Below are positions 11,213 to 57,908 of a stretch of DNA of 64,000 nucleotides, one piece after another. Under the pieces are notes generated by a model. The model was not told the DNA's origin and searched no databases. It saw only the letters and a list, made by a program, of their open reading frames with translations. This DNA is from a virus, in IMG/VR virus record IMGVR_UViG_3300037245_003526, positions 88,297-152,296 of that record. The stretch is one strand, 5' to 3'. The position numbers were made by a program, and so were the translations under genes. Positions within the stretch are counted from its first letter, which is position 1, and the number at the start of each line of letters is the position of its first letter.

Positions 11213-12514
11213 TTAAAAGAAATCATACACTACAAATAATTTTTCTTTTGCTCTAGTAGCAGCAGTATATAACCATCTTTTATAATCATCATCATTTTGA
11301 TAACTATTTCTCTGTACAAATAGAATAACCCTATTCCATTCACTACCCTGCGATTTATGAACAGTTGTACAATATCCATAATCAAAAAAGTCCACCTGTG
11401 AACATTTACTACGTTTAATAGCAGATTTATATTCATCATGAGTATGATCAAATATATCATTATAACTTTCTTGTCCGAAACAATCTGTATTTACTAAACA
11501 GTCATAATAATTTTCTTCGTCGTCATCCATTTGAACTGTCATTGTTGATAATTCTTTTTCGAAAGGTAATGACCATACAACATTACCTAATTGACCATTC
11601 ATAACTCCCATTTCATGGTTGTTTCGTAGGCATATAACCCTTTCACCAGGATATATATCTTCGACCTCAAAACCAATGTTTTTACGAATATGTGTATTTA
11701 ATTTTACCCTACTTTTATTAAAACCACATAAACAAATTACATCTTTGTCAAATGTAATACTATTAAATACATCACGACATTGTTGATTTTGCCAGTTCAT
11801 TCCAAAGACTTCTTTATTATCTAAAGTAGGCAACGGAACGTGAATTTCTCCATATTTTCTTATGTCTTGAGATAGTTGAATAATTGGATTTGATTCTGCT
11901 TGTCTGTGAATTTTTTTAAGGGTTAGTATTGGTTTTTCCATCAGGTTGAATTTAGATCCAATGGGTGGGAGTTGACCATGATCACCTACTGCTATAATAG
12001 GTACATCATAAGAAAGTAAATCTCTCCATATGTCATGGTTTACCATAGATGCTTCATCAATTATTATTAAATCAACATACTGAAGATCATCTACTTTTTC
12101 CCAATGACTTATTACTTTCTTTCCTTGACTATTCATCCTAGTTACAGGTCTATACATTAAACTATGAATAGTACCTATTAAATTACTTTCAGGTTGTGCT
12201 CTAACTACTCCTTTTTTTGATTTACTATATGTATATTTTACTGATTCAGTTTCTATAACTCCTTTAAGTTTTTTCTTAAGCACTGAAGCAGCTTTTCCTG
12301 TGTAAGCGCAAAATGCTACTTTAAATTTATTATTTTTATTCTTTGGTTTATATCCTCTTTTCTTTTCAATGTAATCAGCTAAAAAAGAAATGAGAGTTGT
12401 TTTCCCAGTACCTGCATAACCACCAATAGTAATATAAGGATCATAACCATTATTATACCATTTTACTACTTTATCACATACACTTTTCTGTTCTTCACTT
12501 AATTCAATAGTCAT
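11213..12514 (-). CDS. SF1 DNA helicase (Dda/RecD-like)
   Basis: Walker A GYAGTGKTT, Walker B IIIDEASMV, and C-terminal TVHKSQGSEW motif. Confidence 0.65.
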   Translation of the reverse strand: MTIELSEEQKSVCDKVVKWYNNGYDPYITIGGYAGTGKTTLISFLADYIEKKRGYKPKNKNNKFKVAFCAYTGKAASVLKKKLKGVIETESVKYTYSKSKKGVVRAQPESNLIGTIHSLMYRPVTRMNSQGKKVISHWEKVDDLQYVDLIIIDEASMVNHDIWRDLLSYDVPIIAVGDHGQLPPIGSKFNLMEKPILTLKKIHRQAESNPIIQLSQDIRKYGEIHVPLPTLDNKEVFGMNWQNQQCRDVFNSITFDKDVICLCGFNKSRVKLNTHIRKNIGFEVEDIYPGERVICLRNNHEMGVMNGQLGNVVWSLPFEKELSTMTVQMDDDEENYYDCLVNTDCFGQESYNDIFDHTHDEYKSAIKRSKCSQVDFFDYGYCTTVHKSQGSEWNRVILFVQRNSYQNDDDYKRWLYTAATRAKEKLFVVYDFF

Positions 12515-14251: not shown

Positions 14252-16252
14252 ATGAGTTTCAACAATGAAGATGTAATGTGGGTTAACCAGGGATTAATGT
14301 CATACAAAGATAAACGATATCATTCTGATGGTTATTTTGAAATGAATGTAACTTCAACTACTAAAGATTATATTAACTTCAGTCAACCGAGATTAAGTTT
14401 AGTAATAGATAATGAAGGAAAGAGAAGAATAGCAAGTTTAAGTCTTACAAATGTTTTAGAATTATTAAACTCTTTCAACGAGGTTTCAAAAAATATTAAA
14501 GAAGTATATCAAAATCCTAATCAAGGTGACATAACCAAAAGATTCAACAAGAATAAAGATCTTATATTCGAGTATAGAGTTGAACAAAATACAAAAGAAC
14601 CTTTAGTAGTAATAAAGATTTCATTTGGATATTCAGATGAAGGTAAAGTGATAGTTCCATATAGTTTAGAATATATGGTAATTGGAAAATTACTAAGATC
14701 ATTTTATGAAAATTATAGTAATTGGTGTGTGAATTTACCTATGAGATATCTTACAGGTCAACAGCTATTAGAATCAAAATTACAAACAACTTTAATAAAG
14801 ACATTACCCTCGCAAATAATCCCGGTAGAAACAACACTTGAAGTACGACCAGATTATTCCGCTACTGGATTGCGCGAGATCCCACCACCTGAGAATGCTG
14901 CACCAGAAAAAACTACTGAAGTCCAACTCGAAGTATCAATGGACGAATTTGATTCATTTGTAAAAACTGAAGAACCAAAAGTAGTAATTCCTGAATTGGA
15001 ATCTACAAAAGTTGATACTGATGAAAAACCTAAAACCCAAGAATTTAAAAGTAATTTTATTAACAAAATTTTGAAAGGTGATATTAAAGAATATGAAACT
15101 TTAATGTCAGCATCTATATCAACAGACAATCCACTTGAAGCAATACTTAAAACAATTGATCCAGATTTTAGTTCAAACAATAAAATGATTCTTTTACCTT
15201 CATTACCAGATAATGATCTTAAGTCAGCATTATATATTTCGAACGTATTTTTCAAAACACATTTTCATAGTTTAGTTAATAATGGTGATTGTCTTCCTAT
15301 AAGTGTTCCATTTGTTAAATATAAACCTGTTCAATTTTTTGATGAAAATAAAGAATTAGCATATGACATATGTATGATAAATTGTTATCTTAAATCATAT
15401 AGGAGTAGACGAGAAAATACAAATCCTGATAATTATACAAATGGAGCACTAACTTATTTTATTTCTCGTTGTTATCTTGATATTGTAACTTATAGTTTTT
15501 TGGAAGGTAATAAAGATATAATTAAAAACTGTATAGTATCAAGATTTAATTATTTTAAAGAAAAAGGATTTTTTAATTATTTTGATGAATTATTAAAAGA
15601 TAATAATTGTACTGAAATATCAGGTTATGAAATTGAGGAAATGTTAGAATTTATTTTAAGTGCAATACCTAACGAACCTAACATTTCAGAAGTACATATA
15701 ACTACTTATGAAAATGGTTCATTTAAAGCTCCACCAAAAAATAAGTTTACTATAGAACAAATATTAAATGATGTCGTTAATACTGAAGTTAAATTTAAGT
15801 ACGGAAAGAAGATTGAAGATCTTACTGAAAATCCAGATATAGTTGAATTATTTAAAAAATCAAAAAAGAAGAAATCAAAACCTAAAGAAGAAAAAACAAT
15901 GTCTTTAGATAAAGAAAAAGTTAATCAAGAAACAAATCTTTTACGATGGATTAAATTTAAAATTAATGAAGTTCCAGAAAAAACCCAAAAGAAATTTTCT
16001 AAATACATCGAAAAATTAGAAGATAATGAATATGATTTCTCAAATAATTTATTTCAAGAAGATGAATTTGGAGATAATATAGTTAAGGGTTTATATATAT
16101 GGAATTCAAGTCCTGAAAAGAAAATGAAATATACAGATTTTGCAGTTCAAATTGAAGAGTGTATTTCTAAAGATTTGATTCTTTCAAAGTTAAAAGAAAC
16201 TGAAAATTTAAAAGATACTACAGGAAGCGAATATGGAAATTGGGTAGAATAG
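14252..16252 (+). CDS. hypothetical protein (666 aa)
   Basis: RBS AAAGGAG. Contains an internal Pro/Glu-rich linker. No motif recognised. Confidence 0.45.
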   Translation: MSFNNEDVMWVNQGLMSYKDKRYHSDGYFEMNVTSTTKDYINFSQPRLSLVIDNEGKRRIASLSLTNVLELLNSFNEVSKNIKEVYQNPNQGDITKRFNKNKDLIFEYRVEQNTKEPLVVIKISFGYSDEGKVIVPYSLEYMVIGKLLRSFYENYSNWCVNLPMRYLTGQQLLESKLQTTLIKTLPSQIIPVETTLEVRPDYSATGLREIPPPENAAPEKTTEVQLEVSMDEFDSFVKTEEPKVVIPELESTKVDTDEKPKTQEFKSNFINKILKGDIKEYETLMSASISTDNPLEAILKTIDPDFSSNNKMILLPSLPDNDLKSALYISNVFFKTHFHSLVNNGDCLPISVPFVKYKPVQFFDENKELAYDICMINCYLKSYRSRRENTNPDNYTNGALTYFISRCYLDIVTYSFLEGNKDIIKNCIVSRFNYFKEKGFFNYFDELLKDNNCTEISGYEIEEMLEFILSAIPNEPNISEVHITTYENGSFKAPPKNKFTIEQILNDVVNTEVKFKYGKKIEDLTENPDIVELFKKSKKKKSKPKEEKTMSLDKEKVNQETNLLRWIKFKINEVPEKTQKKFSKYIEKLEDNEYDFSNNLFQEDEFGDNIVKGLYIWNSSPEKKMKYTDFAVQIEECISKDLILSKLKETENLKDTTGSEYGNWVE

Positions 16253-16274
16253 AATAAGAGAGAAAGGAGATTTA

Positions 16275-16895
16275 ATGGCACTTACACTAGGAAAAACATT
16301 TGATTGTAATTATTCAAGAAGAATTCCCTTTTTAGATGGATACTATAATATCGGTACTTTTTTTAATAAAAAATCACCGTTCTTGTTGTTCAGAGTAGAT
16401 CCTCAGTTTGAAGGAAAAAATATCTCAAGCTATGGTATTAAGATAAATATGTTTAAAAATCTGGAATCTTCAAAGTTTACTGAGACGTTTATAAACTTAC
16501 ATAATTTTAGAAAGTCTACTTTAGATATCATTAATCAATATGATTCTATTAAGTCAGATAATTATAATGATATAAGCTCATTTCTTAATGAGACAATAAA
16601 CTTATCTAAAGTAGATTTAGATGATAGAGTTTTATTTGATACATTAACACTTTATGGTTTTACTCTTACAGCTTTTAATAATGAATTTATATTTATAATA
16701 GCTGAAAGACAAAATATCATAAGAAAGTTAGGAAAAAAAGTTGTAAGATCTACAGGTATACAAATAGGAACATCAAGAGCATTAAATTTATTAAATGAAT
16801 TTCATAAAGAAAGTAATGTTTATGGAAAAAAAGGACTAGAACCAAAAACTATAATCCCATCTAATGAAAAGGAGGTAATCAATATTGATGATTAA
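16275..16895 (+). CDS. hypothetical protein
   Basis: 206-aa ORF with RBS AAAGGAG. Confidence 0.45.
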   Translation: MALTLGKTFDCNYSRRIPFLDGYYNIGTFFNKKSPFLLFRVDPQFEGKNISSYGIKINMFKNLESSKFTETFINLHNFRKSTLDIINQYDSIKSDNYNDISSFLNETINLSKVDLDDRVLFDTLTLYGFTLTAFNNEFIFIIAERQNIIRKLGKKVVRSTGIQIGTSRALNLLNEFHKESNVYGKKGLEPKTIIPSNEKEVINIDD

Positions 16896-18253: not shown

Positions 18254-18652
18254 ATGTTGAATAAATATTTACATATGCTATATGAACAATCTTCTGAAGA
18301 TCTAATAACTCAAAAAATAATAGATTTTTTTATAAAAAATCCATATCCAAAAGATGATATAGTACATGACCTTGCTGAAGAATTAGGTATAGATCCTGAT
18401 GATTTTGAGTCTAAAATATATGCAATTCTTAGTTCTTTTTTATCATTTGGAAGATTTAATGAAGAAGGAATGAAAGAAAGTGATTTTGATTCTGAACAAA
18501 TACGAATGGGAATAGAAGTGGAATATGAACATACAAAAAGTCCTATTATTTCAAAAAGAATTGCATTAGATCATCTTACAGAGTTCTCTGATTATTACAC
18601 CCGTTTGAAAAAAATGGAAGATGAAGCTGAAGAGGAACTTGGAGGAGATTAA
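18254..18652 (+). CDS. acidic hypothetical protein
   Basis: Start at the ATG with RBS AGGAG 8 nt upstream. Its stop overlaps the giant gene's start (TAATG). Confidence 0.4.
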   Translation: MLNKYLHMLYEQSSEDLITQKIIDFFIKNPYPKDDIVHDLAEELGIDPDDFESKIYAILSSFLSFGRFNEEGMKESDFDSEQIRMGIEVEYEHTKSPIISKRIALDHLTEFSDYYTRLKKMEDEAEEELGGD

Positions 18653-21600
18653 TGGCAAGAGAAACCGAGGGTTTTCATTATACATTTATACATACTGTGT
18701 TTGGATCATTTATAAATGATACGTTGGAATTTTTTGCTGACTATTTATATCCTAGATTTGAGCATCAAGTAGTAGGAACCTATGATAAAGCAGTTGAATA
18801 TATAACAAAAAAAGATCAATATACAAGAGAAGAAGATAAACCAAATCTTCCCGCTATAATTTTAAATCCTGATGGTGAATTTAATTTAGATGAAGCAAAT
18901 ACTGGTGCTAGAAGTATATATCGTTTTCCAAATCTTATGTCTAGATTTTCTAGTATGATATATGATCCTATCTATCAAGATAATAATAATAAAGTAACTG
19001 TTGGTTTCACAAGATTAAAGGGAACTATAGAACTTTTATTATTACTCAATTCCTTTTACGAATATTTTGATGTAAAGATTTTCTTGATACAAATGTTTGG
19101 AGGTGAAGGAAAATACATCCATCCAGTTGAATTTGATTCTTTTATAATAATTCCTAATGATTTATATACATTCACATATGCAAATGATGTAACTGGTCTT
19201 ACATATAATTTAGATTGGACAGGTGCTGGAATTGAAAGTAAATTAGTAAGAACCACAAATAGAACCGAAATAGTTGTTCCAGGTAAAATTCGACCAACTT
19301 ATGCAATAAGGGGTATGAGTGATGCATCTACTAGACATGGTGGGATAGACTCTTTATCAGACTATAGATTAACAGTTCAAGTTGAATATGAAATTGAACT
19401 TCCTTCTTATATGATATTAGAAACTGATTATATTGTAGAACATGTTAACTTAGATTTACGATACGGTTCAAGTTATTCAGAATATTCAGATTATAATAAT
19501 GAACTCCCACAAGGAAGATATTTAACAAGAACAAGTTGGGATTCAGGATTAAGTGAAACAGAACATTCTGAATTTGACTCTGATGACTTACCTGATGAAG
19601 CAGAAATAGTACAAAAAATAGAATTAGAATCACGTACAAGATATTTTTATGAACTAACTAATGCAGATATTGATTCTACCTCTGATATATTTATAATTAT
19701 ATTTGAAGAAATTCTACAAGAAGAAAGATATTATCTTATTGTTAATAGTAAATATGGAGCAATGACATATGATCTCCACTACGATATACATAATAGTCAA
19801 ACAAGAATTCAGATAAAACGAGAAACAACCTCTGCATTAGAAGCTGGTGATATTATTGAATTATATGTTTATAAATTAATCCAATATCTTGCTGAGCTTG
19901 GAGCTACAGCTATTATAGGAACTGATCTGACTGCTAATGTAGAAATAACTATTCTACTTACTTCTACATCTATCATTCAATCTGATATCTATTCTGATTT
20001 AACTATTGGAGTTGTTGAAATTTCTTCAGGTACAAGTTCAATAGTTTCAGATGTTTCTATATCAGTTTTAACTATTGGAGTTATTGAAGTTTTATCAAGT
20101 ACAAGTTTAATAGAAACCTCTTGTAATGGATTATTACAATTTGGTCTTCCTGAATCTCTTTCAGGTACAGCAAATATAACATCATATGTTGATAATACAG
20201 CTATAATTTATTACAAATATTTAGATTCTTCACCTGCCATTCAATCTAATACAACATCTTCTTTACAACTAGGTCACGTAGAATCATTATCAAGCTCAGT
20301 AAATATAACAACCTCTGTTGATCATACAGGTTTAATTTATATAATAGTATCTTTGAGTGCTTCACCTATCATTCAATCTAATACAACATCTTCTTTACTA
20401 CTTGGACATGAAGAATCATTATCAGGTACATCAAATATAACATCCAATACAACATCTTCTTTACTACTTGGTCATGAAGAATCATTATCAGGTACATCAA
20501 ATATAACATCATATGTTGATAATACAGCTATAATTTATTTCAAATATTTAGATGCTTCATGTGTTATAGAAACCTCTTGTGATGGTTTATTAATTAACTA
20601 TATTGAACGACAAACAGATAAGGGATTTAATAATGTTACTGTAGAATCTGCTAGTTATATAACTCAGATAAGCAACACAGATCCAGCAGTTGCAACATTT
20701 GTTGGTGGTGCCGATATTGTAGTAGATGGAGATATGGAATCTGATGATGCTGCTTGGTTTAGTCAAGGAACGCCTACTGTGCAAGAACGATCAAGTGAGC
20801 AAGCGCATGCTGGAACTTATTCGAGAAAGTTCACTGTAGATGCTGTGAGTGAGGGTTTGAGGCAAAACTTTACAGGAATAAGTTGGAATGGCGTTCCACA
20901 AATGGCAACTTTCTGGATTTATGGAGATGGTGTAAATGAGTTGAATATAATTGTTGCTGGCTCATCTGCATTAGGTCAAGTAGACTCAACAGTTTATCCT
21001 GCATCATGGACAAAGGTATTTTTATATTTTGACGGTGATTCAGATACAACACCATATTTATTAATCAGATCCTCGGGGTCTTCTGGAACTTGGTATATTG
21101 ACGACGTTTCTATACAAGAAGTTGCAGATGTTGACGAAGGAGATTTTATTGTTTTAGATGAATTTGGTGATCACTTGACTCCGACTCTTTGGGATGCAGA
21201 TGCCTCAGTATTCACGAGCGGTGTTTATGCATGGCAAGGTTACAATGGTAACACAGTTGCGAATGTCGGAAACGAGCTTGAAGTTACTTATGTTGACGAT
21301 CAAAGAGGCGCATATTCTTCATTTAGAGATTCTTATGATTTATCGAGAAATCTTGTAGTAGGTGAGTGGTACATATTCCAAATAGATGCTTATTATATAG
21401 GTGGTGCCAGTGGAGTGAAAGTTAGGTTGCAGAATTCAGGCAGTTTTGATTCTGATCCATTGACAGGTTCCAAAACTACTTATACATGGGTTTTTAAAGC
21501 TTTAACTATTTTTGGATGTGCCACTACACAAATTTCAATGTCAGCGGGTAATAAAGTATATATTGATAATCTTTCTTTAGAACCTATTATGGCATTGGAT

Positions 21601-24600
21601 AATAATGTCTACGAGATATATGATATTGTTGACAACACTGCAAAACTTAGAAATCATGTTGGAGATCTTGATCTATCTGATTCAACTTCTGCTACTGGTG
21701 CAGGAACATGTAAAGTTATCACTATAGATGATTGGGTAGTAGGTGACGGCGTTGGTTCATATATTGATATTGATAGAGATAGTCCTGAATTAGTTATAGA
21801 CGGAGATATGACATCTGCTATTAATTGGCAAGTAGGTGCAGGTTGGTCGATAGGTGGAGGTGTTGCGACAAGTGATGGATCACCCGGATATTTAAACCAA
21901 AATAGTATAATAACAACAGGTAAAGTTTATAAGGTTGAGTTTGAGGTTACAGCTTATACATCAGGTACTATAATTGGATATATAAATTCCCCGTGGGATT
22001 GGATTGAAACAGCTACAGGAACATATTCATACATTTTAGAGGCTACTAGTGAAAGTCTACGCTTTTATTCTGCTGCTTTTATTGGTTCAATTGATAATGT
22101 CTCAATTAAAGAAGTTTCAGATATATCAGTACAGGTTACAGGTTCTCAAAGTGCAGAAACTAGTATAATACAAAATGTAAATGAGATTGTTGATGAAGAA
22201 TTAAGAACTTCATTCTCAGTAATTGATAGAACAGCTGGAGGTGTAACTCCTACAGCAGGTGGTACTGACGGAACCGAGGTAATAACAAATGGTGATCATT
22301 CTGAAAATTTAATAACAGTAGGAACTGATGATTCAGGATTAAAAATAAGTACAGGATTTATGGGTAGAGTTGATGATCTAACAATTGAAGAAGTAGAAAG
22401 AGGTTCTAAATTATTAGGTACATCAAATATTACAACTATTGATTCTTCTGCATTTATGACTAATTTCATATATTTAGATGCTTCATGTGTTATAGAAACC
22501 TCTTGTGATGGTTTATTTATTAATTATGTTGAACGTCAAATAAATGGTGATTTTTCAGAAATATCTTTAGGATCTAATATTGATATATCTCAAATTACTA
22601 ACGCTGATCCTGCAGTTGCAACATTTACTCTTGGTACAGATTTATGGGACGCCGATGCCGCAGTATTTACAAGCGGGACTTATAGTTGGCTTCCGTATAC
22701 AAATACAATTGCTAATGTTGGAAATGAATTAGAAATTACTTTTGTAGATCATTCCAGAGGTGCTTATTGTTATTTAAGAGATGCACATGATTTAATTTCT
22801 GATTTAACTGTCGGTCAATGGTATAAGTTATCAGTTGATGCATATTATACAGGTGGTGCAAGCGGGGTGCAATTGCGTCTTGCGGTAGAGACACCCATAC
22901 TCTCAGATTTGTTGACCGGAATTAAAACAACTTATACTTTTTATTTTGTGGCTACGTCAGTAAATGGACATGATCTTAGCTTTTTAAATATGGGTGCCTC
23001 TAATGTAGTTTATATAGATAATTTAAAAATTGAACCTTTTGCTGGAATAGTAGAGGAAGGAGATTTTATAAATCTTGGTGGTTTCGGGGATGTTCTTAGT
23101 CCAGATCTTGCATCTGGTTGGGATTTTACAAGTGGATGGTCTACATCAGTAGAGTGCACTATTGATGATTCTGATTCTTTTACTACGACAGGTTCAAGTC
23201 GATCTGTATATATTACGACTATAATGGAAGTTGGAAAATGGTATAAAGTAACAATTGTTGGGTCAACTTCAAGTAGCGATATTCGTTGTATAGCAGGGTC
23301 TTCAATTCCAGGAAGTAACGAACCTGGATTTGGAGTACATTATTTAAAATGTACTGGGATTGCCAGATTTTATATACAAAATACTACTGCCGGAATCACA
23401 GATATAACAACTCTTGAAATTGAAGAAGTAAAGTCAATAGATGATTATATCTACGAGGTTGGAGCATTTACGGATAATACTGCTCCTTTAAGGAATCATG
23501 TAGGTGATTTAGATTTATCAGATCTTGCTGGAGTTACAGGAGCGGGATACGGTCAAGTAGCCACGATAGATGATTGGACAGTAGATGATGGAGTTGGTCC
23601 TCATTTTAGTTATACCTCTATTATTTACAACGAAGTTGTAAATGGAGATATGGAACTTGATACAAGTTGGGTGAGTGTTTTGACACCTACTGTTCAAGAA
23701 AGAAGCAGCGAACAGGCACATAGTTTAACCTATAGTAGAAAAATCACCGTTGATGCAGAGTATGAAGGAGTTCAACAAACAATACCTGGTTCTGCTGATT
23801 ATGGGTTATATAAAATTACTGCATGGATATATGGGGATGCCACAAATAAACTTGCGGCTTATCTTGATACAGAAAGTGTTCTCGTATATTATTCGGATGT
23901 AGAGGGAGATGTCTATCCAGCTTCTTGGACAAAAATAACTTGGTATTCTATACTTGATGAAGGAACAAATCCAATTGTAGCATTCGTGTCAGGTCAGGGA
24001 GATACAACAGGAACTTGGTATATAGATGATGTCAGTATATTGAAAGTTTATTCCTCAGTACAGGTTACAGGTTCCCAAAGTGCAGAAACCAGTTTATTAC
24101 AAGATGTAAATGAGATTATTGATGCAGATTTTAGAATTTTATGGACAGTAGAAGACCGTACAGCAGGAGGTACAACTCCTACAGCAGGTGGTACTGATGG
24201 AACTACCGAGATAATAATAAACGGTGATCATTCTTCTGAAATTTTAACTGCAGTAGGAACCGACGATTCAGGATTAAAAATAAGTACAGGATTTATGGGT
24301 AGAATTGATGATATAACAATTGAAGAACTAAAACAATATACTGAATTTTCAGGTACATCAAATATAACAACTTCTGATTCTACAGCAGTTATATTTGGAT
24401 TCACTGCAGTTCCACGTCAAACAAATGAAGGATTTGGAGAGATAACACTTGGTAGTGATATAAATATATCACAAATTACTAATACTAATCCAGCATTAGT
24501 GACTTTTGCTGATATTGGTGCAGACGATGTAACAAATGGAGATAATGAAGCTGCACTATTTACCTATAATAATTCAGCAAGAGGGGGAACGACTCAATCG

Positions 24601-26292
24601 TCTGAACAAGCGCATAGTGGAACTTATTCAGCTAAATACGTAGCAACTGATGCTATTGGGCAGCATTATGTGTCTTGGTTAGCAAATCAATATAATGAAG
24701 GAGATTTAATTTATTTAGAAGCATGGGTTTATTTACCGAGTGGTCAGGATATAACGACATTAAATTTACAAGTATATGCGGATACTATTGATACTATAAC
24801 TACAACGGACACATGGGTTAAAATGTCTGGATATTTTGATGTTTTGAGTAGTCATTATTTTGATGTCAATGTAGAGCCTTGGTCCGGTATTGATTTAGAA
24901 AATCAGTATTTCTATATGGATGATATTGTAACCAAAAAAGTATCTGCTCCAGCACCGGGAGATTTTGTTTATCTTGATGGATTTGGTGAACATCTTGCTC
25001 CTACCATTTGGGATGAAGATGCTGCGGTATTTACGAGTGGAACTTATAGTTGGGAAGTTCAAGGAACAAATACAATTGCAAATGTTAGCAATGAACTTGA
25101 GATTACACATGTTGATAGTAACTTAGGAGCACAAAGCCGTTTCAGAGATGCATGGGATTTATCGGAAAATACTGTAATCGGGCAATGGTATAAATTTCAG
25201 GTTGATGCGTATTATACAGGTGGTTCGTCGGGTGTTTATTTAAGATTGTATGATGGAACTGCATATCATGATAGTGACAGCCTTACAGGAAGTAAAATAA
25301 CTTATACTCTTTATTTCAAAGCCTATAGTGAGACTGGATGTTATGTAAGATTGAATAATATGACTTCTGATAATTTAGTTTATATTGATAACCTTTCTTT
25401 ACAAAAAATAATGCCATTAGATAAATATATATATGAAATATACGATTTTGATGTTAATGGTAATGCTAAACTTAAAAACCATGTTGGAGATCTTGATTTA
25501 TCTGATTCAACAGCAGTAATAGATACAACAGGAACGATGCAAATTGCTACTATAGATGATTGGGTAGTAGGTGATGGAGTTGGACCTTATCAGGAAGTTG
25601 ATCGTACTCAAATTCTTAATAATAATGACTTTTCTGGTACTTGGGGAGCTAATGATTTACCTGAAGGTTGGGGTCAATTAGGAACACCTGATGCTAATAA
25701 TTATTTTGAAAAAGACGATACTAATAACAGAATAAGAATTGTTACTAATAGTAATACTATAGGCATTGCTCAATCTGGCCTGTTGTTTGTAGAGACACTG
25801 TATTATTATGAATGCGATGTATATTCTGCAACTGGAGGAATAATATTACGTACTGGGCATTCTGACCTTCATATAACTCTTGATTCAGCAGGGATATATA
25901 GTGGATTTTTTATCGTTCCTACTGGTAAATCAGCAATTTTTTATCTTAGAGATGGAGCTATTTCAGGAGATGTAGTAATTAACTATGTAAAAATATATGA
26001 AGTATCCAGATCGGTACAAGTTACAGGTTCTCAAACAGCAGAATCTTCAATACTTCAAGATGCAAGTGAAGATACAACTGCAGAATTTAGAATTTCATGG
26101 ACATTAGCAGACCGTACAGCAGGAGGTACAACTCCTACAGCAGGTGGTACTGATGGAACTGAAGTAATTACAAATGATGATCATACTGAAACTTTAATAA
26201 CAGAAGATACAAGTGATTCAGGATTAAAAATAAGTACAGGATGTATTGGAACAGTTGATGATTTAACAATTGAAGAATTAATTTATTGGTAA
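18652..26292 (+). CDS. giant modular virion-associated protein (2546 aa). Repeated carbohydrate-binding-like jelly-roll modules suggest a fibre or adhesin.
   Basis: Uninterrupted 7.6-kb ORF. It has three copies of a ~650-aa supermodule. The recurring blocks are ERSSEQAH.GTYS ... WYIDDVSI, WDADA.VFTSG.Y.W ... VYIDNLSLEP, NHVGDLDLSD ... IDDWVVGDGVG, and SVQVTGSQSAETS ... DRTAGGTTPTAGGTDGT ... GLKISTGFMGR.DD.TIEE. Aromatic/Gly-rich blocks are typical of CBM or lectin folds. Confidence 0.5.
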   Translation: MARETEGFHYTFIHTVFGSFINDTLEFFADYLYPRFEHQVVGTYDKAVEYITKKDQYTREEDKPNLPAIILNPDGEFNLDEANTGARSIYRFPNLMSRFSSMIYDPIYQDNNNKVTVGFTRLKGTIELLLLLNSFYEYFDVKIFLIQMFGGEGKYIHPVEFDSFIIIPNDLYTFTYANDVTGLTYNLDWTGAGIESKLVRTTNRTEIVVPGKIRPTYAIRGMSDASTRHGGIDSLSDYRLTVQVEYEIELPSYMILETDYIVEHVNLDLRYGSSYSEYSDYNNELPQGRYLTRTSWDSGLSETEHSEFDSDDLPDEAEIVQKIELESRTRYFYELTNADIDSTSDIFIIIFEEILQEERYYLIVNSKYGAMTYDLHYDIHNSQTRIQIKRETTSALEAGDIIELYVYKLIQYLAELGATAIIGTDLTANVEITILLTSTSIIQSDIYSDLTIGVVEISSGTSSIVSDVSISVLTIGVIEVLSSTSLIETSCNGLLQFGLPESLSGTANITSYVDNTAIIYYKYLDSSPAIQSNTTSSLQLGHVESLSSSVNITTSVDHTGLIYIIVSLSASPIIQSNTTSSLLLGHEESLSGTSNITSNTTSSLLLGHEESLSGTSNITSYVDNTAIIYFKYLDASCVIETSCDGLLINYIERQTDKGFNNVTVESASYITQISNTDPAVATFVGGADIVVDGDMESDDAAWFSQGTPTVQERSSEQAHAGTYSRKFTVDAVSEGLRQNFTGISWNGVPQMATFWIYGDGVNELNIIVAGSSALGQVDSTVYPASWTKVFLYFDGDSDTTPYLLIRSSGSSGTWYIDDVSIQEVADVDEGDFIVLDEFGDHLTPTLWDADASVFTSGVYAWQGYNGNTVANVGNELEVTYVDDQRGAYSSFRDSYDLSRNLVVGEWYIFQIDAYYIGGASGVKVRLQNSGSFDSDPLTGSKTTYTWVFKALTIFGCATTQISMSAGNKVYIDNLSLEPIMALDNNVYEIYDIVDNTAKLRNHVGDLDLSDSTSATGAGTCKVITIDDWVVGDGVGSYIDIDRDSPELVIDGDMTSAINWQVGAGWSIGGGVATSDGSPGYLNQNSIITTGKVYKVEFEVTAYTSGTIIGYINSPWDWIETATGTYSYILEATSESLRFYSAAFIGSIDNVSIKEVSDISVQVTGSQSAETSIIQNVNEIVDEELRTSFSVIDRTAGGVTPTAGGTDGTEVITNGDHSENLITVGTDDSGLKISTGFMGRVDDLTIEEVERGSKLLGTSNITTIDSSAFMTNFIYLDASCVIETSCDGLFINYVERQINGDFSEISLGSNIDISQITNADPAVATFTLGTDLWDADAAVFTSGTYSWLPYTNTIANVGNELEITFVDHSRGAYCYLRDAHDLISDLTVGQWYKLSVDAYYTGGASGVQLRLAVETPILSDLLTGIKTTYTFYFVATSVNGHDLSFLNMGASNVVYIDNLKIEPFAGIVEEGDFINLGGFGDVLSPDLASGWDFTSGWSTSVECTIDDSDSFTTTGSSRSVYITTIMEVGKWYKVTIVGSTSSSDIRCIAGSSIPGSNEPGFGVHYLKCTGIARFYIQNTTAGITDITTLEIEEVKSIDDYIYEVGAFTDNTAPLRNHVGDLDLSDLAGVTGAGYGQVATIDDWTVDDGVGPHFSYTSIIYNEVVNGDMELDTSWVSVLTPTVQERSSEQAHSLTYSRKITVDAEYEGVQQTIPGSADYGLYKITAWIYGDATNKLAAYLDTESVLVYYSDVEGDVYPASWTKITWYSILDEGTNPIVAFVSGQGDTTGTWYIDDVSILKVYSSVQVTGSQSAETSLLQDVNEIIDADFRILWTVEDRTAGGTTPTAGGTDGTTEIIINGDHSSEILTAVGTDDSGLKISTGFMGRIDDITIEELKQYTEFSGTSNITTSDSTAVIFGFTAVPRQTNEGFGEITLGSDINISQITNTNPALVTFADIGADDVTNGDNEAALFTYNNSARGGTTQSSEQAHSGTYSAKYVATDAIGQHYVSWLANQYNEGDLIYLEAWVYLPSGQDITTLNLQVYADTIDTITTTDTWVKMSGYFDVLSSHYFDVNVEPWSGIDLENQYFYMDDIVTKKVSAPAPGDFVYLDGFGEHLAPTIWDEDAAVFTSGTYSWEVQGTNTIANVSNELEITHVDSNLGAQSRFRDAWDLSENTVIGQWYKFQVDAYYTGGSSGVYLRLYDGTAYHDSDSLTGSKITYTLYFKAYSETGCYVRLNNMTSDNLVYIDNLSLQKIMPLDKYIYEIYDFDVNGNAKLKNHVGDLDLSDSTAVIDTTGTMQIATIDDWVVGDGVGPYQEVDRTQILNNNDFSGTWGANDLPEGWGQLGTPDANNYFEKDDTNNRIRIVTNSNTIGIAQSGLLFVETLYYYECDVYSATGGIILRTGHSDLHITLDSAGIYSGFFIVPTGKSAIFYLRDGAISGDVVINYVKIYEVSRSVQVTGSQTAESSILQDASEDTTAEFRISWTLADRTAGGTTPTAGGTDGTEVITNDDHTETLITEDTSDSGLKISTGCIGTVDDLTIEELIYW

Positions 26293-27329: not shown

Positions 27330-28583
27330 GTGAAGAATTATAGCGAAAAATTCAATCAACGAGATATAAAAGAAGTTTCTTCTGTGGAAATAAAAAAACT
27401 AGGATTATCAACAGATGGTCTTAAACATGTTGAAAAGATAGAAGAACTTAGAAAATCACCATTAAATTTAGTTATAGCAGAATGTATCCAAACATGTGAA
27501 TTTACGCAAAATAAATTTAAAAAACAAAAATTAAAGAGAAGAAAAAAATATGTAATGGGTCTGGGTATTTATAAACAGTTATGGTATGATACTGCAAGTT
27601 GTAGAAAAATACTCAGACCTTCGACCGTAAAATTTAAAAATATTTATAAACCATATCAAGGTCAAGATTTAACTGATAAGAAAATATTGATAACTAGAAC
27701 TGGTGGAATAGGAGACTTATTATTCATCCTTCCAAATTTAATATATCTTAAAGAAGAATATCCAACTTGTAAAATCTATTTTGCGTGTGGTCCGCAATAT
27801 CAAGATATGGTTAATAATTGGGATTGTATTGATGAGATTTTAGATCAACCATTTCCATTTGCATTTTTAACAACTGCTCATTATCATGCAGCTTTCGAGG
27901 GTGTTATAGAAAGAGCAGAAGAAGCTAAATATACCAATGCCTATCGTCTATTTACAAATTGGTTGGGTCTTGAATTACCAGATGAAAAATTAATTCCTGT
28001 ACAAGAACCAAAACCTCTTTTAGTTGATATATGTAATAATTTTTTAACTGAAAGAGAAAAAGATGAAGGATTTATAACAATACAACTTAGAGCATCATCT
28101 CCAATTAGAACCCCACGACCTACCTTCTGGAAAAATATAATTGATGGTTTAGTAAAGAAAAATTATAATGTAATTATTACTGATACTCCTCATATGGAAA
28201 AATCAATAGATCAGTTTATAGAAACTTTAAATCCTCTTACTCAGGAAAGAACTAGAAATTTTTCTAAACAATCAGTATCACTTGATTATTCAATTGCACT
28301 TGTCTCACTTTCAAAATGTGCAATATCTCCTGATAGTTCTTTGATTCATATTGCTGCTAGTATGAAAATACCAGCTTTTGGTATATATGGTGCATTTCCT
28401 GGTAATATAAGATTATCTACTTATAAAAATGTTGACTGGATTGAACCAGTTGGAGTAAGGTGTTGTCCATGTTTTATTCATGGTCCAAACCCATGCAGAA
28501 ATTCAGTAGATGGGCACCCAACATGTTATGATAAAATTAATGTAACTGAATCATTAGAAAAAGTTGAAAGGTTAATAAAATGA
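27330..28583 (+). CDS. glycosyltransferase family 9 (heptosyltransferase-like)
   Basis: KKILITRTGGIGDLLFILPNLIYLKEEYP (GT9 N-terminal motif). GTG start per the ORF track. Confidence 0.5.
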   Translation: MKNYSEKFNQRDIKEVSSVEIKKLGLSTDGLKHVEKIEELRKSPLNLVIAECIQTCEFTQNKFKKQKLKRRKKYVMGLGIYKQLWYDTASCRKILRPSTVKFKNIYKPYQGQDLTDKKILITRTGGIGDLLFILPNLIYLKEEYPTCKIYFACGPQYQDMVNNWDCIDEILDQPFPFAFLTTAHYHAAFEGVIERAEEAKYTNAYRLFTNWLGLELPDEKLIPVQEPKPLLVDICNNFLTEREKDEGFITIQLRASSPIRTPRPTFWKNIIDGLVKKNYNVIITDTPHMEKSIDQFIETLNPLTQERTRNFSKQSVSLDYSIALVSLSKCAISPDSSLIHIAASMKIPAFGIYGAFPGNIRLSTYKNVDWIEPVGVRCCPCFIHGPNPCRNSVDGHPTCYDKINVTESLEKVERLIK

Positions 28584-50701: not shown

Positions 50702-51253
50702 ATGGAGAAAATTCTTATCCTTTATAGTGGTGGTGCTGATTCCAGACTTATGTTAGAGCTAGCACATAAGATTGGATTATCAATCAATTGCCTTCTTATC
50801 AATTATGATCAGTTACATTCAGAAGAATTATCAATAGCAAAAAAACAACTAGAAGAATTAGAGATACCATACCAAACAGTCGATTTAAAAAATCTAAATA
50901 TTAATAGCGGTCTTACCGGAGATGGTATTAAAGATGATTCAGGTGATGTCCATGAAATGTATGTACCAGGAAGAAATACAGTATTTTTAAGTATAGCTCT
51001 TAGTATAGCTGAAAGTAAAGATATTAAAACAATATGGTTAGGATGTGATTGGTCAGATCGTTTAAATCTTTTTCCTGATTGTTATCAGGAATATATAGTA
51101 CAAATAAATGAGTTATTTAAAATTGCAGGTCCAAAATCAATAAAGGTTGAAGCTCCATTAATGGGATTAAGTAAAAAAAATATATTTGGATTACTTAAAT
51201 CATTTGGAGTAGATGAAGGAGATATTTTTTCTGGTTATGGGGATTTATCATGA
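50702..51253 (+). CDS. queC: QueC-like 7-cyano-7-deazaguanine synthase (PP-loop ATPase), C-terminally short
   Basis: ILYSGGADSRL PP-loop, YDQLH, VPGRNTVFLSIALSIAE, and DCYQEY. It lacks the C-terminal Cys4 zinc site of canonical QueC. Confidence 0.5.
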   Translation: MEKILILYSGGADSRLMLELAHKIGLSINCLLINYDQLHSEELSIAKKQLEELEIPYQTVDLKNLNINSGLTGDGIKDDSGDVHEMYVPGRNTVFLSIALSIAESKDIKTIWLGCDWSDRLNLFPDCYQEYIVQINELFKIAGPKSIKVEAPLMGLSKKNIFGLLKSFGVDEGDIFSGYGDLS

Positions 51254-51612
51254 AAAAAGAAAAGTTAAAAGAGGGAATTAAATATGACTTTGGAAAAAGT
51301 CGATATGATCTGATAGACCCATATGCATTAGAACAAGTTATACAAATATACACATTTGGTTGTAATAAATATGAAGATCATAATTGGCGAAAAGGAATGA
51401 AATGGAGTAGAGTATTCGGTGCACTAATGAGACATTGTTGGGCATTCTGGAGAGGAGAAGAAATAGATCCAGAAAGTAAATTACCTCATATGGCACATGC
51501 TGCATGGAATTGTCTTACCTTAATTAATTATTCAAAGTATAGAACAAAATTTGATGACAGATGGATAGAAACAGAAGAGAAAATAATCGAAAACGTAAGG
51601 AGAGGAAAATGA
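51250..51612 (+). CDS. phage NTP pyrophosphohydrolase-like protein (dATP/dGTP diphosphohydrolase N-domain family, from memory)
   Basis: GKSRYDLIDPYAL ... KYEDHNWRKGMKWSRVFGALMRHCWAFWRGEEID ... HMAHAAWNCLTL. This matches the pattern GKxRYDLxPxxAL ... KYGDxNWxKG ... SRxxDSALRH ... DHLAAAAWN that I recall for that family. Confidence 0.4.
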   Translation: MKKEKLKEGIKYDFGKSRYDLIDPYALEQVIQIYTFGCNKYEDHNWRKGMKWSRVFGALMRHCWAFWRGEEIDPESKLPHMAHAAWNCLTLINYSKYRTKFDDRWIETEEKIIENVRRGK

Positions 51613-52019
51613 TTAAAGTATACTTGGCAGGTTATGCAGGAGAAAAGGAATATAGAGAATATGTTTCTAAAAGATATGGAAGACATTTAGATATATTTGA
51701 TCCAATGAAAGAAGTTGACTCTAAAATTTTAGAAAAATATAGTGGAGGAACTTTATCAGAAAAAGATGTTGCTCTTATTGTAGAAGGAGATAAAGCAGCA
51801 ATTGAATCATGTGATATAGTTATTGTATATATAAGGAGAGCTTCTTTTGGAACAGCAATGGAAACGCTTCATGCATTCAAAAATAAAATTCCTGTTTATT
51901 TAATTGATTCAGATAATAAATGGAGAGAAGATGTTTGGGTACGATACCATACAACTAAGACATTCGATGATATAGATTCATGCTTCAGTTATATTTTAGA
52001 AAGCATAAAAGGATTGTAG
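51609..52019 (+). CDS. nucleoside 2-deoxyribosyltransferase-like / dNMP N-hydrolase-like protein
   Basis: MIKVYLAGYAG N-terminus and FGTAMETLHAFKNKIPVYLI (G-T-x-x-E catalytic motif). Start at 51609 (ATGA overlap, RBS AAGGAGAGG). Confidence 0.4.
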   Translation: MIKVYLAGYAGEKEYREYVSKRYGRHLDIFDPMKEVDSKILEKYSGGTLSEKDVALIVEGDKAAIESCDIVIVYIRRASFGTAMETLHAFKNKIPVYLIDSDNKWREDVWVRYHTTKTFDDIDSCFSYILESIKGL

Positions 52020-53947: not shown

Positions 53948-54493
53948 ATGTATATATACGATGTTTTAGAAGATAAACGATATAGAGAAAAAGTAAAAAA
54001 TAGGTTATTGAATAGGTCTACTGTAAATAAAGAAACAGGTTGTAGAATTTGGGATGGTTATAAAATACATGGATATGGAAATATTCATATAAAAAATAAA
54101 AATGTTGCTACTCATAGAGTTTCATATGAAGTTTTTATTGGACCTATTCCAAAAGATAAAATTTTGATGCATAGTTGTGATAATCCAGCCTGTATAGAAC
54201 CAACACATTTAGTTATAGGTACTATACAAGAAAATAACGAAGATAGATCAAGAAAAAATAGAACAGCAAGACAATTTGGTTCTTCTAATGGAATGGCAAA
54301 ATTAAACGAAGAGAATGTTAAATTTATTAAAGAATATTTACTTCCATATGATATAAGATGTCGTGAATATAAAACAATGAAGGAATGTGTTGCATTTGAA
54401 TACAATGTTAAACCATTAACAATTCATAATATCATGATCGAAAAAACATGGAAAAATATTAAAATATCTAGCGAAATTTTAGAAAGGATATAA
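53948..54493 (+). CDS. HNH homing endonuclease
   Basis: GCRIWDGYKIHGYGNI ... THRVSYE ... HSCDNPACIEPTHLVIGT ... N..D. Confidence 0.55.
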   Translation: MYIYDVLEDKRYREKVKNRLLNRSTVNKETGCRIWDGYKIHGYGNIHIKNKNVATHRVSYEVFIGPIPKDKILMHSCDNPACIEPTHLVIGTIQENNEDRSRKNRTARQFGSSNGMAKLNEENVKFIKEYLLPYDIRCREYKTMKECVAFEYNVKPLTIHNIMIEKTWKNIKISSEILERI

Positions 54494-55412: not shown

Positions 55413-55652
55413 ATGCTATTACTTAGAGTGTATGTTAATCTTGATGAAATTGATACCATTGGAATAATAAATACAGGTCACGTAGACCCTGAAACAGAAG
55501 AACATTTATATAGAGTTCATTGGCCAGAAGATTATAAAGCTAAATATAACCATTTAGAAATCTATCATTTACGTACAGACCCTTGGACAGTGTTAGTCGA
55601 AAAAGTAATGAATGCAATGAATGTAAATTCTAAAATAAAGGAACCTGAATGA
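55413..55652 (+). CDS. hypothetical protein
   Basis: 79 aa. Confidence 0.35.
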   Translation: MLLLRVYVNLDEIDTIGIINTGHVDPETEEHLYRVHWPEDYKAKYNHLEIYHLRTDPWTVLVEKVMNAMNVNSKIKEPE

Positions 55653-56185
55653 ATTGTTTAAAATGTGGTGTTGAAACTACAAATACTAAATTTTGTGGAA
55701 GAGCATGTTCTGCTTCATATAACACAAAAGGTAGAAAACATTCTATTGAAACCAAAAGAAAAATAAGTAATACATTAGGTGGAGTAGGTAAAGCAGAAGA
55801 AGAACATTTTTGTAAATTATGTGGACATAATATTTCAAGTGTTAGAAAAACTAAATTATGTGATACATGTAAAATTGGTGAATTTTTATGTGATGTATGT
55901 GGAAAAATTTGTAAAACAGAATTAGGATTAAAAAGTCATAAAGAACAAGGTTGTATTAACAGAAAAATAGGTATAGATTCACAAGGTTATGAATATTTTA
56001 CTGATAATGAAAATAAATTTAAATATGTTCATAGATCTAAAATTGAAGAATTGTTAGGAAGAAAACTAAAAACTAATGAAGTTGTTCATCATAAAGATGA
56101 AATTAAAAAAAATAATGATATAGAAAATCTAGAACTAATGACTATATCTAAACATTCAAAACTTCATGCTGATATGCGCCGATAG
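55649..56185 (+). CDS. HNH endonuclease with N-terminal zinc ribbon and a C2H2-like finger
   Basis: CLKCG ... CGRAC, CDVCGKICKTELGLKSHKEQ, and C-terminal VHHKDEIKKNNDIENLELMTISKHSKLH. Its 3' end overlaps tRNA-Trp. Confidence 0.5.
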   Translation: MNCLKCGVETTNTKFCGRACSASYNTKGRKHSIETKRKISNTLGGVGKAEEEHFCKLCGHNISSVRKTKLCDTCKIGEFLCDVCGKICKTELGLKSHKEQGCINRKIGIDSQGYEYFTDNENKFKYVHRSKIEELLGRKLKTNEVVHHKDEIKKNNDIENLELMTISKHSKLHADMRR

Positions 56186-56251
56186 CTCAAGCGGGTAGAG
56201 TACTGGTCTCCAAAACCAGTGGTGGGGATTCGAGGTCCTCTCGGCGTGCCA
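56176..56251 (+). tRNA. tRNA-Trp (anticodon CCA)
   Basis: Manual cloverleaf. Acceptor GCGCCGA / TCGGCGT, anticodon arm CTGGT-CTCCAAA-ACCAG, T-loop TTCGAGG, 3' GCCA. Confidence 0.55.
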
Positions 56252-56273
56252 TAAAAACGAAAGGAAAATAAGA

Positions 56274-56558
56274 GTGGATGATATAAAAAGATATAAATCA
56301 CAAAACGAAATAAATATACCTATAGTTAGAAACTACAAAGATTTATATATTCTACTTCAAAGACCAATGAATTTTGAAGATGGTTCTGAAGCATATATTC
56401 ATTCTGAAGGAATTATAAGAGAAGATTGGCCGAATGCTCATTTATGTTTTTTAAAATATACAGCAGATAATAAAATAAGGGATTGGCTTTGGTTATTGAG
56501 TCCAGACGAAAAAAAAGGTATGTGTATTTTTGACTTTAAACCAGAGTATACAGTTTAA
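56274..56558 (+). CDS. hypothetical protein. Paralog A of a tandem duplicated pair.
   Basis: MDDIKRYKSQNEI ... C.FDFKPEY. Confidence 0.4.
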   Translation: MDDIKRYKSQNEINIPIVRNYKDLYILLQRPMNFEDGSEAYIHSEGIIREDWPNAHLCFLKYTADNKIRDWLWLLSPDEKKGMCIFDFKPEYTV

Positions 56559-56575
56559 ACGAAAGGTAGTTCTTA

Positions 56576-56860
56576 ATGAATGAATTAAAAAGATATAAAT
56601 CAGCAGAAGAATTGAATAACCCATATTTTGTTAAAGATCATAAGGACTTGAATAAATTAGATAAAAAGTTTGATTTAAAAGAGGGTGATGAAGCAGTTTG
56701 GATTATTGATAGAACTGGCTGTCCAGAATGGTGGAATGGCGAACGTAATTATTATAGAAATATTAATGATTCTAAAAATCCACAATATATATGGTGCCCA
56801 ATTAAGGGTGAAGATGGTGGTTTATGTTTTATTGACTTTGAACCAGAATACTCAATTTAA
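56576..56860 (+). CDS. hypothetical protein (paralog B)
   Basis: MNELKRYKSAEEL ... CFIDFEPEY. Same length as paralog A (94 aa). Confidence 0.4.
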   Translation: MNELKRYKSAEELNNPYFVKDHKDLNKLDKKFDLKEGDEAVWIIDRTGCPEWWNGERNYYRNINDSKNPQYIWCPIKGEDGGLCFIDFEPEYSI

Positions 56861-56877
56861 ACGAAAGGAAATTAACA

Positions 56878-57261
56878 TTGAAGATAGCATTTGATTTTCA
56901 CGGAGTATTACAAACGTATCCAGAAATTTTAAAACCTATTTTAATATCATTAAATAAAGAACATAATTTAATAATATTATCTGGACCACCATGGAAAGAA
57001 ATTTTTGTAGAACTTACTGACGCAGGTTATACTTTAGGTACCCACTATGATGAAATAATTTCTGTAGTTGATTGGATTAAAGAACAAGGTATTCCAATGC
57101 ACCAAAATGAAAATGAATCATGGTATTGTGATGATGAAAGTTGGTGGTCAAGTAAAGCTAAAATTTGTAAACAAAATCATATAAGTGTTTTAGTAGATGA
57201 TAAGATACAATATAAAGAACATATTGAAAATAATTTTCCATTATTTTTTCATGTGAAATAA
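56878..57261 (+). CDS. small HAD-like hydrolase (5'(3')-deoxyribonucleotidase-like). TTG start.
   Basis: IAFDFHGVL (motif I) and VLVDD (motif IV). Confidence 0.35.
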   Translation: MKIAFDFHGVLQTYPEILKPILISLNKEHNLIILSGPPWKEIFVELTDAGYTLGTHYDEIISVVDWIKEQGIPMHQNENESWYCDDESWWSSKAKICKQNHISVLVDDKIQYKEHIENNFPLFFHVK

Positions 57262-57262
57262 A

Positions 57263-57338
57263 CCTCCCATAGCTCAACAGGTAGAGCATTCGCCTTATAA
57301 GCGAAAGACGATAGGTTCGATTCCTACTGGGAGGACCA
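57263..57338 (+). tRNA. tRNA-Ile (anticodon UAU, reads AUA)
   Basis: Manual fold. Acceptor CCTCCCA / TGGGAGG, D-stem GCTC/GAGC, anticodon arm TTCGC-CTTATAA-GCGAA, T-loop TTCGATT, ACCA. Confidence 0.5.
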
Positions 57339-57343
57339 TATAT

Positions 57344-57418
57344 TCCTTAGTGGTGAAATTGGCATCACGTATGGCTGTTAACCATAAATTACAGGTTCGA
57401 CCCCTGTCTGAGGAGCCA
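57344..57418 (+). tRNA. tRNA-Asn (GUU)
   Basis: Manual fold. Acceptor TCCTTAG / CTGAGGA, D-stem GTGA/TCAC, anticodon arm TATGG-CTGTTAA-CCATA, T-arm ACAGG-TTCGACC-CCTGT, GCCA. Confidence 0.5.
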
Positions 57419-57424
57419 AATTAT

Positions 57425-57498: not shown

Positions 57499-57504
57499 TT
57501 TAAT

Positions 57505-57580: not shown

Positions 57581-57601
57581 TTAAAAACGAAAGGATACTT
57601 T

Positions 57602-57826: not shown

Positions 57827-57829
57827 TAA

Positions 57830-57904: not shown

Positions 57905-57908
57905 AATA

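Follow-up and report, generated by a model that had tools for sequence, protein, structure and literature searches.

The virus record IMGVR_UViG_3300037245_003526 of IMG/VR contains, within the stretch of 64,000 nucleotides (nt) analysed here (positions 88,297 to 152,296 of the record; hereafter the window), a single gene for a protein of 2546 amino acid residues (aa), most of which is repetitive. An initial annotation of this DNA described the product as a multivalent glycan-binding fibre or adhesin, which raises the question of where on the virion such a protein is anchored and what its repeats do. The reading to which the analysis leans, with moderate confidence, is that of a virion protein whose anchor is a terminator-type ring domain and which displays arms of carbohydrate-binding module (CBM)-like domains for avid binding to glycans. 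It is probably a giant sticky neck appendage and not an ordinary tail fibre.

The gene was found as a single open reading frame (ORF) at 18652-26292 (+), uninterrupted over its 7.6 kb as initially annotated, and no other long ORF is present in that stretch. The ATG follows a Shine-Dalgarno sequence (GGAGG) at a distance of 6 nt and shares bases with the stop codon of the DUF5661 gene upstream of it (TAATG), which suggests that the start is genuine and translationally coupled. The window is AT-rich (25-35% GC) and gene-dense, and the GC content of the repeat region (34-37%) is above that of its surroundings (~35% vs 28%). A foreign origin or recent import of the repeat region was nevertheless rejected, given that its third-position GC (0.14-0.18) matches that of the neighbouring genes (0.12-0.15); the difference in GC thus stems from the amino-acid composition. 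The parts of the gene are as follows:

18641-18645 (+): Shine-Dalgarno sequence GGAGG, read directly from the sequence
18652-19890 (+): N-terminal anchor (aa 1-413), with a modelled fold like that of tail terminators (T4 gp15/phiKZ gp98)
19912-20571 (+): array of about 10 units of 22 aa (aa ~421-640), the presumed stalk
20380-20511 (+): 66-bp tandem duplication, 64/66 nt identical, the youngest pair of 22-aa units
20572-22407 (+): supermodule 1 (aa 641-1252), order L-A-k-B-C-D-E
22408-24345 (+): supermodule 2 (aa 1253-1898), order L-B-k-D-C-A-E, also found in the proteins P0032 and P0078
24346-26289 (+): supermodule 3 (aa 1899-2546), order L-A-k-B-C-D-E, with module E3 as the end of the protein
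20707-21123, 23635-24048 and 24526-24942 (+): modules A1, A2 and A3, of the CBM_4_9-related type
21184-21588, 22633-23037 and 25003-25410 (+): modules B1, B2 and B3, the best-modelled beta-sandwich
21598-21789 (aa 983-1046), 23431-23625 and 25417-25611 (+): the three copies of the conserved linker C
21787-22116, 23128-23409 and 25738-25962 (+): modules D1, D2 and D3, with D2 and D3 diverged and D3 weak
22117-22395 (aa 1156-1248), 24052-24327 and 26026-26277 (+): modules E1, E2 and E3, truncated D-type

The first ~410 residues are non-repetitive and had drawn no comment in the initial annotation. When aa 1-1200 were used as the query of a HMMER search over 1.84 billion representative proteins, 3233 matches were obtained. 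The N-terminal domain was present in at least 104 of the returned proteins (mostly among the best 150 of the 3233), with a median length of ~402 aa, and most of these proteins end where the repeats of the giant protein begin. An AlphaFold2 model of the domain, based on an alignment with 28 family members, had a mean predicted local distance difference test score (pLDDT) of 75, and in this model the domain appears to adopt the core fold of tail terminators. Likeness of fold was also listed for the terminators of Mu and Bas63, lambda gpU and T5 p142, as well as for the collars of pyocin and diffocin and the cap proteins of extracellular contractile injection systems. A terminator fold of the anchor would place the giant protein at the head-tail junction; the word "fibre" in the initial annotation, in the sense of a baseplate tail fibre, is therefore unsupported, and a tail-fibre location is probably wrong. 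No match was obtained by tblastn with either the N-terminal domain or modules A and B against 50,697 phage records, nor by a scan of IMG/VR with the N-terminal domain, the alignment of which is too diverse for pattern design.

Add-ons at the C-terminus were found repeatedly in this family. Five other representatives carry C-terminal tails of 106-434 aa after a complete N-terminal domain. In P0005, CHB_HEX_C_1/Fn3_assoc follows right after residue ~400, and in P0008 the same position is taken by He_PIG immunoglobulin-like (Ig) domains; both are typical surface-display domains, which indicates that the C-terminus of the family tolerates displayed domains. With 2137 extra residues, the window protein is the extreme of this trend.

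The repetitive part was analysed by BLAST of 80-aa chunks against the whole protein. Three colinear internal repeat sets were observed (E 1e-10 to 1e-34), in agreement with the three supermodule copies of ~650 aa described initially, at aa ~606-1252, 1253-1898 and 1899-2546 (647, 646 and 648 aa). The 22-aa repeats at aa ~421-640 have the consensus ..sSLxLGhxEsLSGTSNITS.., and the 66-bp duplication, which had been called perfect, encodes the same unit twice. Each supermodule opens with one or two degenerate 22-aa units, followed by the conserved segment L (..ISQITNTDPAVATF..). Supermodules 1 and 3 share one order of parts, in which k is a short segment (..EGDFIxLxxFGD..), and the order of supermodule 2 is permuted. 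Linker C is marked by the motifs ..YEIYD..NTAKLRNHVGDLDLSD..ATIDDW.., and the E modules by SVQVTGSQSAETS..TAGGTDGT..GLKISTG..DDLTIEE. According to global pairwise alignments, the identity between copies is 33-52% for A, 56-61% for B, 58-63% for linker C, 27-33% for D, 66-72% for E and 41-57% for L. The earlier figure of ~40-70% was roughly right overall, although D is lower, and at 27-72% aa identity the repeats are real and old, as expected from the initial view that they are no assembly artefact.

To classify the modules, family hidden Markov models (HMMs) of A, B and D were built only from the modules of other proteins, with the window protein left out. The A-family HMM matched aa 686-824, 1662-1799 and 1959-2097 (E 6.5e-45, 1.3e-52 and 1.7e-9), the B-family HMM matched aa 845-979, 1328-1462 and 2118-2253 (E 2e-53, 9e-57 and 9e-56), and the D-family HMM matched aa 1046-1155, 1493-1586 and 2363-2437 (E 3.7e-35, 4.3e-7 and 3e-3). 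The E blocks were also matched by the D-family HMM, from its position ~23 to the end (~23-110; E 1e-6, 2.5e-5 and 4e-5), so E is a D-type module without the first strands and not, as initially described, a distinct C-terminal-like block. Weak cross-matches between the A, B and D models, together with a shared terminal motif, (Y/V)IDN(V/L)S(I/L)xE, indicate that the three belong to one superfamily. There are twelve modules in total, three each of A, B, D and E; the two CBM/lectin-like blocks proposed for each supermodule thus kept their CBM-like character, but became four beta-sandwich-type modules.

The evidence for a CBM-like nature comes from relatives and from structure prediction. The A-module HMM matched aa 340-481 of P0052 (E 1e-28), and this A-type module passes the threshold of Pfam CBM_4_9 (PF02018; 32 bits against a cutoff of 25.9), in support of the CBM/lectin-like blocks of the initial annotation. 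The B-type module of P0121 gave a weak CBM_4_9 match (E 0.0083), below the cutoff, and CBM_4_9 was the only Pfam family that recurred among 42 module fragments. The AlphaFold2 model of aa 628-1252 (supermodule 1) had a mean pLDDT of 62.5, with 85-94 in B, 65-87 in A, 50-77 in D, ~35 in E and mostly <60 in the linkers. Comparison of this model with known structures, as had been proposed for the modules, yielded fold matches that include CBM61, CBM11 and CBM29; a typical match extends over 131-141 residues at 2.3-2.7 Å and thus over a single module, most likely B. The modelled module has the beta-sandwich (jelly-roll) fold of ~130-150 residues, and a CBM fold is regarded as established for at least one module. 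Foldseek matches in BFVD (E 1e-10 to 1e-21) were multi-CBM tail, minor-tail and neck-appendage proteins of phages. A CBM-like nature is therefore supported for A and B and plausible for D and E. With binding predicted in this way, a multivalent glycan-binding adhesin, as initially proposed, is still the best functional reading of the array, whereas the "fibre" of that proposal finds no support.

Pfam and PHROGs gave no match for the whole protein or for the excised modules, even at E <= 10 for PF02018, and the Pfam scans of both detected no catalytic domain, coiled coil or fibritin-like region. LamG_3 (PF13385) was likewise not matched by Pfam in the window protein, and it was found in the relatives P0004, P0121 and P0146. 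By eye, the segments L, k and C together resemble a small E1_FCCH-type barrel (PF16190) with modules inserted in two of its loops, and P0146 carries an unsplit E1_FCCH barrel (Pfam 31.5 bits). The spliced L + k + C sequences gave no Pfam match to E1_FCCH; in hhalign comparisons with the FCCH regions of P0146 and P0162 the expected motifs were aligned, but with a probability of only 16% and 4%, respectively. With the linkers poorly modelled, the split barrel was set aside as an idea only.

The surroundings of the gene were compared with those of family members on three related contigs (L002, L003 and L005). A conserved order was observed, with a Dda-type helicase gene (-), a gene for ~650 aa, a gene for ~170-210 aa and the family member; within a few kb downstream, NUDIX and GT9 (glycosyltransferase) genes are present in L002 and L003, and only NUDIX in L005. 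The order in the window is alike, namely helicase (11213-12514, -), 666-aa gene (14252-16252), 206-aa gene (16275-16895), giant gene and GT9 gene (27330-28583), with three small genes inserted ahead of the giant gene. No NUDIX gene is found at the corresponding position of the window, and a large glycan island follows instead. The pair upstream is listed as:

14252-16895 (+): the 666-aa and 206-aa genes, sheath-sized and tube-sized, which always precede the terminator-family gene in related contigs

No similarity to known proteins was detected for the ~650-aa and ~200-aa proteins of the window and of L002, L003 and L005; they could be a sheath and a tube that have diverged strongly. In L005, a PAAR gene 1.5 kb downstream of the family member indicates a contractile system. 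The window also encodes a clamp loader, transfer RNAs (tRNAs) and a transfer-messenger RNA (tmRNA), and the only isolate relatives of a virion protein of the window are the jumbo phages Listeria LPJP1 and Bacillus BpSp (28-30% identity). The source is a diverged jumbo myophage with a contig of 244.5 kb.

On this basis, the following arrangement is proposed. The first ~410 residues would form the tail terminator, a hexameric ring that caps the tube and sheath below the head of a contractile-tailed jumbo phage. In phiKZ, the hexameric terminator gp98 has a C-terminal extension that projects to the first sheath ring (PMC13250141), and the C-terminus of the phiTE terminator runs along the sheath (PMC11972413). 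Since both C-termini lie on the sheath, a C-terminal fusion would emerge outside the neck, and we infer that the C-terminus of the present domain lies on the outer side and continues into a short stalk of 22-residue repeats. The stalk would be followed by the three supermodules of ~647 residues, arranged like beads, each with four CBM4/9/22-type beta-sandwich modules (A, B, D and the truncated D, E) and conserved linkers between them. Six assembled copies would give six arms with up to 72 CBM-like modules exposed at the neck. These arms would probably bind a polysaccharide (host capsule, lipopolysaccharide, exopolymer or particles) weakly but with high avidity and reversibly, and would thereby hold the virion near cells and improve the odds that the baseplate meets its receptor. 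A similar role has been proposed for the neck passage structures of lactococcal phages and for the neck fibres of cyanophages, of which that of A-1(L) ends in a CBM (PMC10966104).

Several observations weigh against this arrangement. The terminator assignment rests on one model of medium confidence (predicted template modelling score 0.54), and the core fold of terminators is common to other tail-tube-related proteins. No sequence match of the N-terminal domain to a named terminator family was obtained in Pfam, PHROGs or the PDB, and the same searches with 28 family members also matched none; one member gave a marginal PHROG match to "tail protein" (E 0.0036). Neither PDB searches by sequence and by profile nor hhalign against a Pfam-positive sheath identified the 666-aa and 206-aa genes as sheath and tube. 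A second, canonical terminator may be encoded elsewhere on the 244-kb contig, of which the window is the part in view. As for the arms, none of the modules of the window protein reaches a Pfam threshold, and D and E are poorly modelled. The alignment behind the supermodule model is shallow, with 15 rows, one of which is supermodule 2 with its parts put in the order of supermodule 1; it was restricted to these rows because MAFFT merges single-module fragments of A, B and D onto one module, and the poor modelling of D, E and the linkers follows from it. A CBM fold by itself is no proof of sugar binding, and we know of no solved precedent for an extension of 230 kDa on each terminator subunit. 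Finally, the neck fibre of cyanophage A-1(L) terminates in a CBM that did not bind its host (PMC10966104).

Three other accounts of the protein were weighed against the neck adhesin. It could be a conventional distal tail fibre or receptor-binding protein on the baseplate, with an N-terminal domain that is a baseplate or tube-initiator-type adaptor and merely shares the tube-like fold. Multi-CBM arrays are indeed typical of tail fibres and minor tail proteins, as among the BFVD matches, the D-type module is abundant in proteins of ~700-1200 aa that resemble tail fibres, and a giant protein made of the 22-aa repeat (P0002/P0003) is encoded next to a sheath gene; the fold of the anchor speaks against this location, which is considered unlikely. 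Somewhat more weight, though still little, is given to a protein anchored at the neck whose beta-sandwich array does not bind glycans and serves as a collar or "hair" with a structural role (for example, spacing, prevention of aggregation or stabilisation of the head-tail joint) or as a binder of protein ligands. This would agree with the A-1(L) result, with the description of the phiKZ whiskers as neck stabilisers (PMC13250141) and with the Ig-like domains, without CBMs, of other family members. Twelve intact modules of three CBM-related families, at 27-72% identity, nevertheless fit avidity better than a spacer, and the CBMs of the lactococcal neck passage structure (NPS) do bind host cells, if only at low affinity, and their action is attributed to multiplicity and avidity (PMC6669499). 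It is barely credible that the long ORF is an artefact, be it a chimeric assembly, a repeat that was collapsed or expanded, or a pseudogene in decay that happens to be read through. The protein is recorded only once (P0001, with 1 member and 1 JGI contig), and an assembler could miscount the 66-bp duplication; but 7.6 kb free of stop codons is unexpected by chance at 28-35% GC, the repeats are too diverged for an assembly collapse, third-position GC is that of the neighbours, the Shine-Dalgarno sequence is strong and the start coupled, and all modules match the independent family HMMs end to end.

A further proposal, that the CBM array is functionally tied to the glycan island, was judged improbable. 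In one version, the arms recognise a sugar made or modified by the transferases of the phage, either on the host surface or on the virion, so that, for example, re-adsorption to infected cells is avoided; in the other, the stalk, rich in Ser, Thr and Asn, is itself glycosylated. The giant gene lies 1 kb upstream of a ~20-kb same-strand block of glycosyltransferase, sulfotransferase, methyltransferase and nucleotide-sugar enzymes, so that its position immediately upstream of the island was annotated correctly. The 22-aa repeat zone contains 20% Ser and 12% Thr, and has 7 N-x-S/T sites against 3.6 ± 1.5 expected. This excess of about 2 standard deviations arises from repeated units, and an enrichment of N-glycosylation sequons was rejected as meaningful. 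Related contigs have the family gene and a nearby GT9 gene, but their arms are small or absent and no large island is in view, so the adjacency, the only evidence for the tie, may be incidental.

The content of the island was recorded in its own right. The block at 27330-49818 (+) is very large and encodes GT9, GT2, GT8-like and two GT1 transferases, two nucleotide-sugar epimerases, a sulfotransferase and at least four methyltransferases, of which two are TylF-like, together with two fusion proteins (NTP-transferase/kinase and HAD-cupin). This content points to a methylated or sulfated sugar as the product.

Among known systems, neck structures that bear CBMs have been described, and so have terminators whose extensions are short. 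The terminators of myophages (phiKZ gp98, T4 gp15, P1 gp24, the phiTE terminator and the pyocin/diffocin collar) have no detectable sequence similarity to the window protein, and their extensions, which bind the sheath, range from tens to a few hundred residues, whereas it carries 2137 residues of repeats and CBM-like modules. It resembles the NPS of the lactococcal 936/P335 siphophages, an accessory, low-affinity, CBM-bearing collar at the head-tail junction (PMC6669499). The NPS is a separate protein of 500-900 aa; its N-terminal ring domain is BppU-like, and it has a trimeric coiled coil and ends in a single CBM (6 x 3 per virion). In the window protein, by contrast, the terminator-like domain is itself the anchor, no coiled coil is seen and there are twelve modules per chain. 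The neck fibres and whiskers of myophages (A-1(L) gp82/gp81/gp80, T4 fibritin and phiKZ gp34) are similar in being long, bead-chain appendages of the neck. They differ in being separate proteins, trimeric for the most part, that dock on adaptor or neck proteins, and their beads are whole trimers of small subunits, unlike the beads of the window protein, which are tandem domains of one giant chain fused to a terminator-like domain. With respect to the CBM4/9/16/22 clan, the modules lie below the Pfam thresholds and are attached to no glycoside hydrolase. The multi-CBM tail proteins of phages (for example, the CBM-cenC proteins of Bacillus phage PBC2 and minor tail proteins of Arthrobacter phages) also have tandem CBM-like beta-sandwiches in one structural protein, but at 9-21% identity to the window protein and on different anchors, and none is annotated as a terminator. 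In the literature consulted on neck appendages and terminators, the appendages are separate proteins and the terminator extensions are short and sheath-binding (PMC13250141, PMC10966104, PMC6669499, PMC11972413), and a terminator that itself bears a CBM array of 2100 residues and twelve modules is not known there.

The distribution of the parts was analysed as well. In a word-indexed protein search, the full protein as query retrieved only giants made of the 22-aa repeat, and supermodule 1 as query retrieved only single-module matches. The repeat makes up nearly all of the proteins P0002, P0003 and P0004 (2100-2600 aa), of which one is encoded beside a tail sheath gene and another (P0004) is interrupted by LamG_3 domains. 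On a myophage contig (L001, 3-15191), three genes lie side by side whose products, of 1746+, 2606 and 685 aa, consist almost wholly of the 22-aa repeat, there in the form LTIGVxExLSSTSxIxSxVxxx; it is unannotated and represents an undescribed fibre-repeat family. A profile search with the E module added one protein, a fragment of 156 aa. Only three other proteins proved to carry the whole cassette with L, C and E, namely P0032 (951 aa), the one further full-length protein among them, the truncated P0078 (522 aa) and the fragment P0168; it is thus rare, and in this phage it is triplicated and partly reshuffled. The gene of P0032 (L004, 8001-10856) lies directly after the major capsid gene in a T7-like podovirus module, and its product may be a head-associated adhesin, so the cassette appears to move between different virion anchors. 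The C-terminal end of P0032 is a leucine-rich-repeat-like sequence.

The B-type and D-type modules are widespread in other structural-looking proteins. A large family of 700-1200 aa (P0057-P0152) begins with MSNLLDKASILLTPTAY.., carries 3-5 tandem D-type modules and has a conserved C-terminal domain ending in ..ALTDxELxxLTTI; no D-type repeat was detected by Pfam in the two members scanned, P0059 and P0062.

Further downstream, other genes of the window were noted. At 50702-52019 (+), genes for QueC, a protein with a dATP/dGTP diphosphohydrolase N-terminal domain (MazZ-like) and a nucleoside 2-deoxyribosyltransferase-like protein stand in a row, which suggests a pathway of DNA base modification with 7-deazaguanine or a related base. 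Six tRNA genes (Trp, Ile-TAT, two Asn, Gln and Ser) are located at 56176-58841 (+), interspersed with HNH homing-endonuclease-like ORFs (53948-54493 and 55649-56185). An RtcB-type tRNA/RNA ligase is encoded nearby at 59351-60475 (+), and a tmRNA gene with the tag peptide ADNLAFAAADDYATAALAA is found at 62029-62403 (+), just downstream of the tRNA cluster.

Beyond the single gene, these results define three new CBM-related sequence families (A, B and D/E) and a 22-residue stalk repeat, all undetected by Pfam or PHROGs. They also identify as probable tail terminators the members of a large family of ~400-aa proteins that had no annotation, by which thousands of metagenomic proteins would be annotated. 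This terminator-like family accepts displayed domains at its C-terminus, from a single Ig domain up to the CBM array of 2137 residues. A tentative generalisation, which we hold possible and less secure than the neck adhesin itself, is that the terminator has been turned into a display platform, its C-terminus being a hot spot for grafts of adhesin cassettes; in this phage, a triplicated and shuffled cassette of ~650 aa with four CBMs would have given six arms of 230 kDa with 72 lectin-like modules. If this is true, the protein would be the first terminator-borne neck adhesin, and unrelated types of phage would share adhesin cassettes that move between anchors close to the capsid and anchors close to the tail. 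Accessory adhesins, whether on the head, the neck or the tail, are believed to increase encounter rates where waters are dilute or rich in particles, as well as to tune host range, and they are rarely recognised in metagenomic phages. A neck location, if confirmed, would add to the ways in which phages are known to mount glycan-binding modules, and the protein would then be a natural scaffold for the display of binders on the myophage neck.

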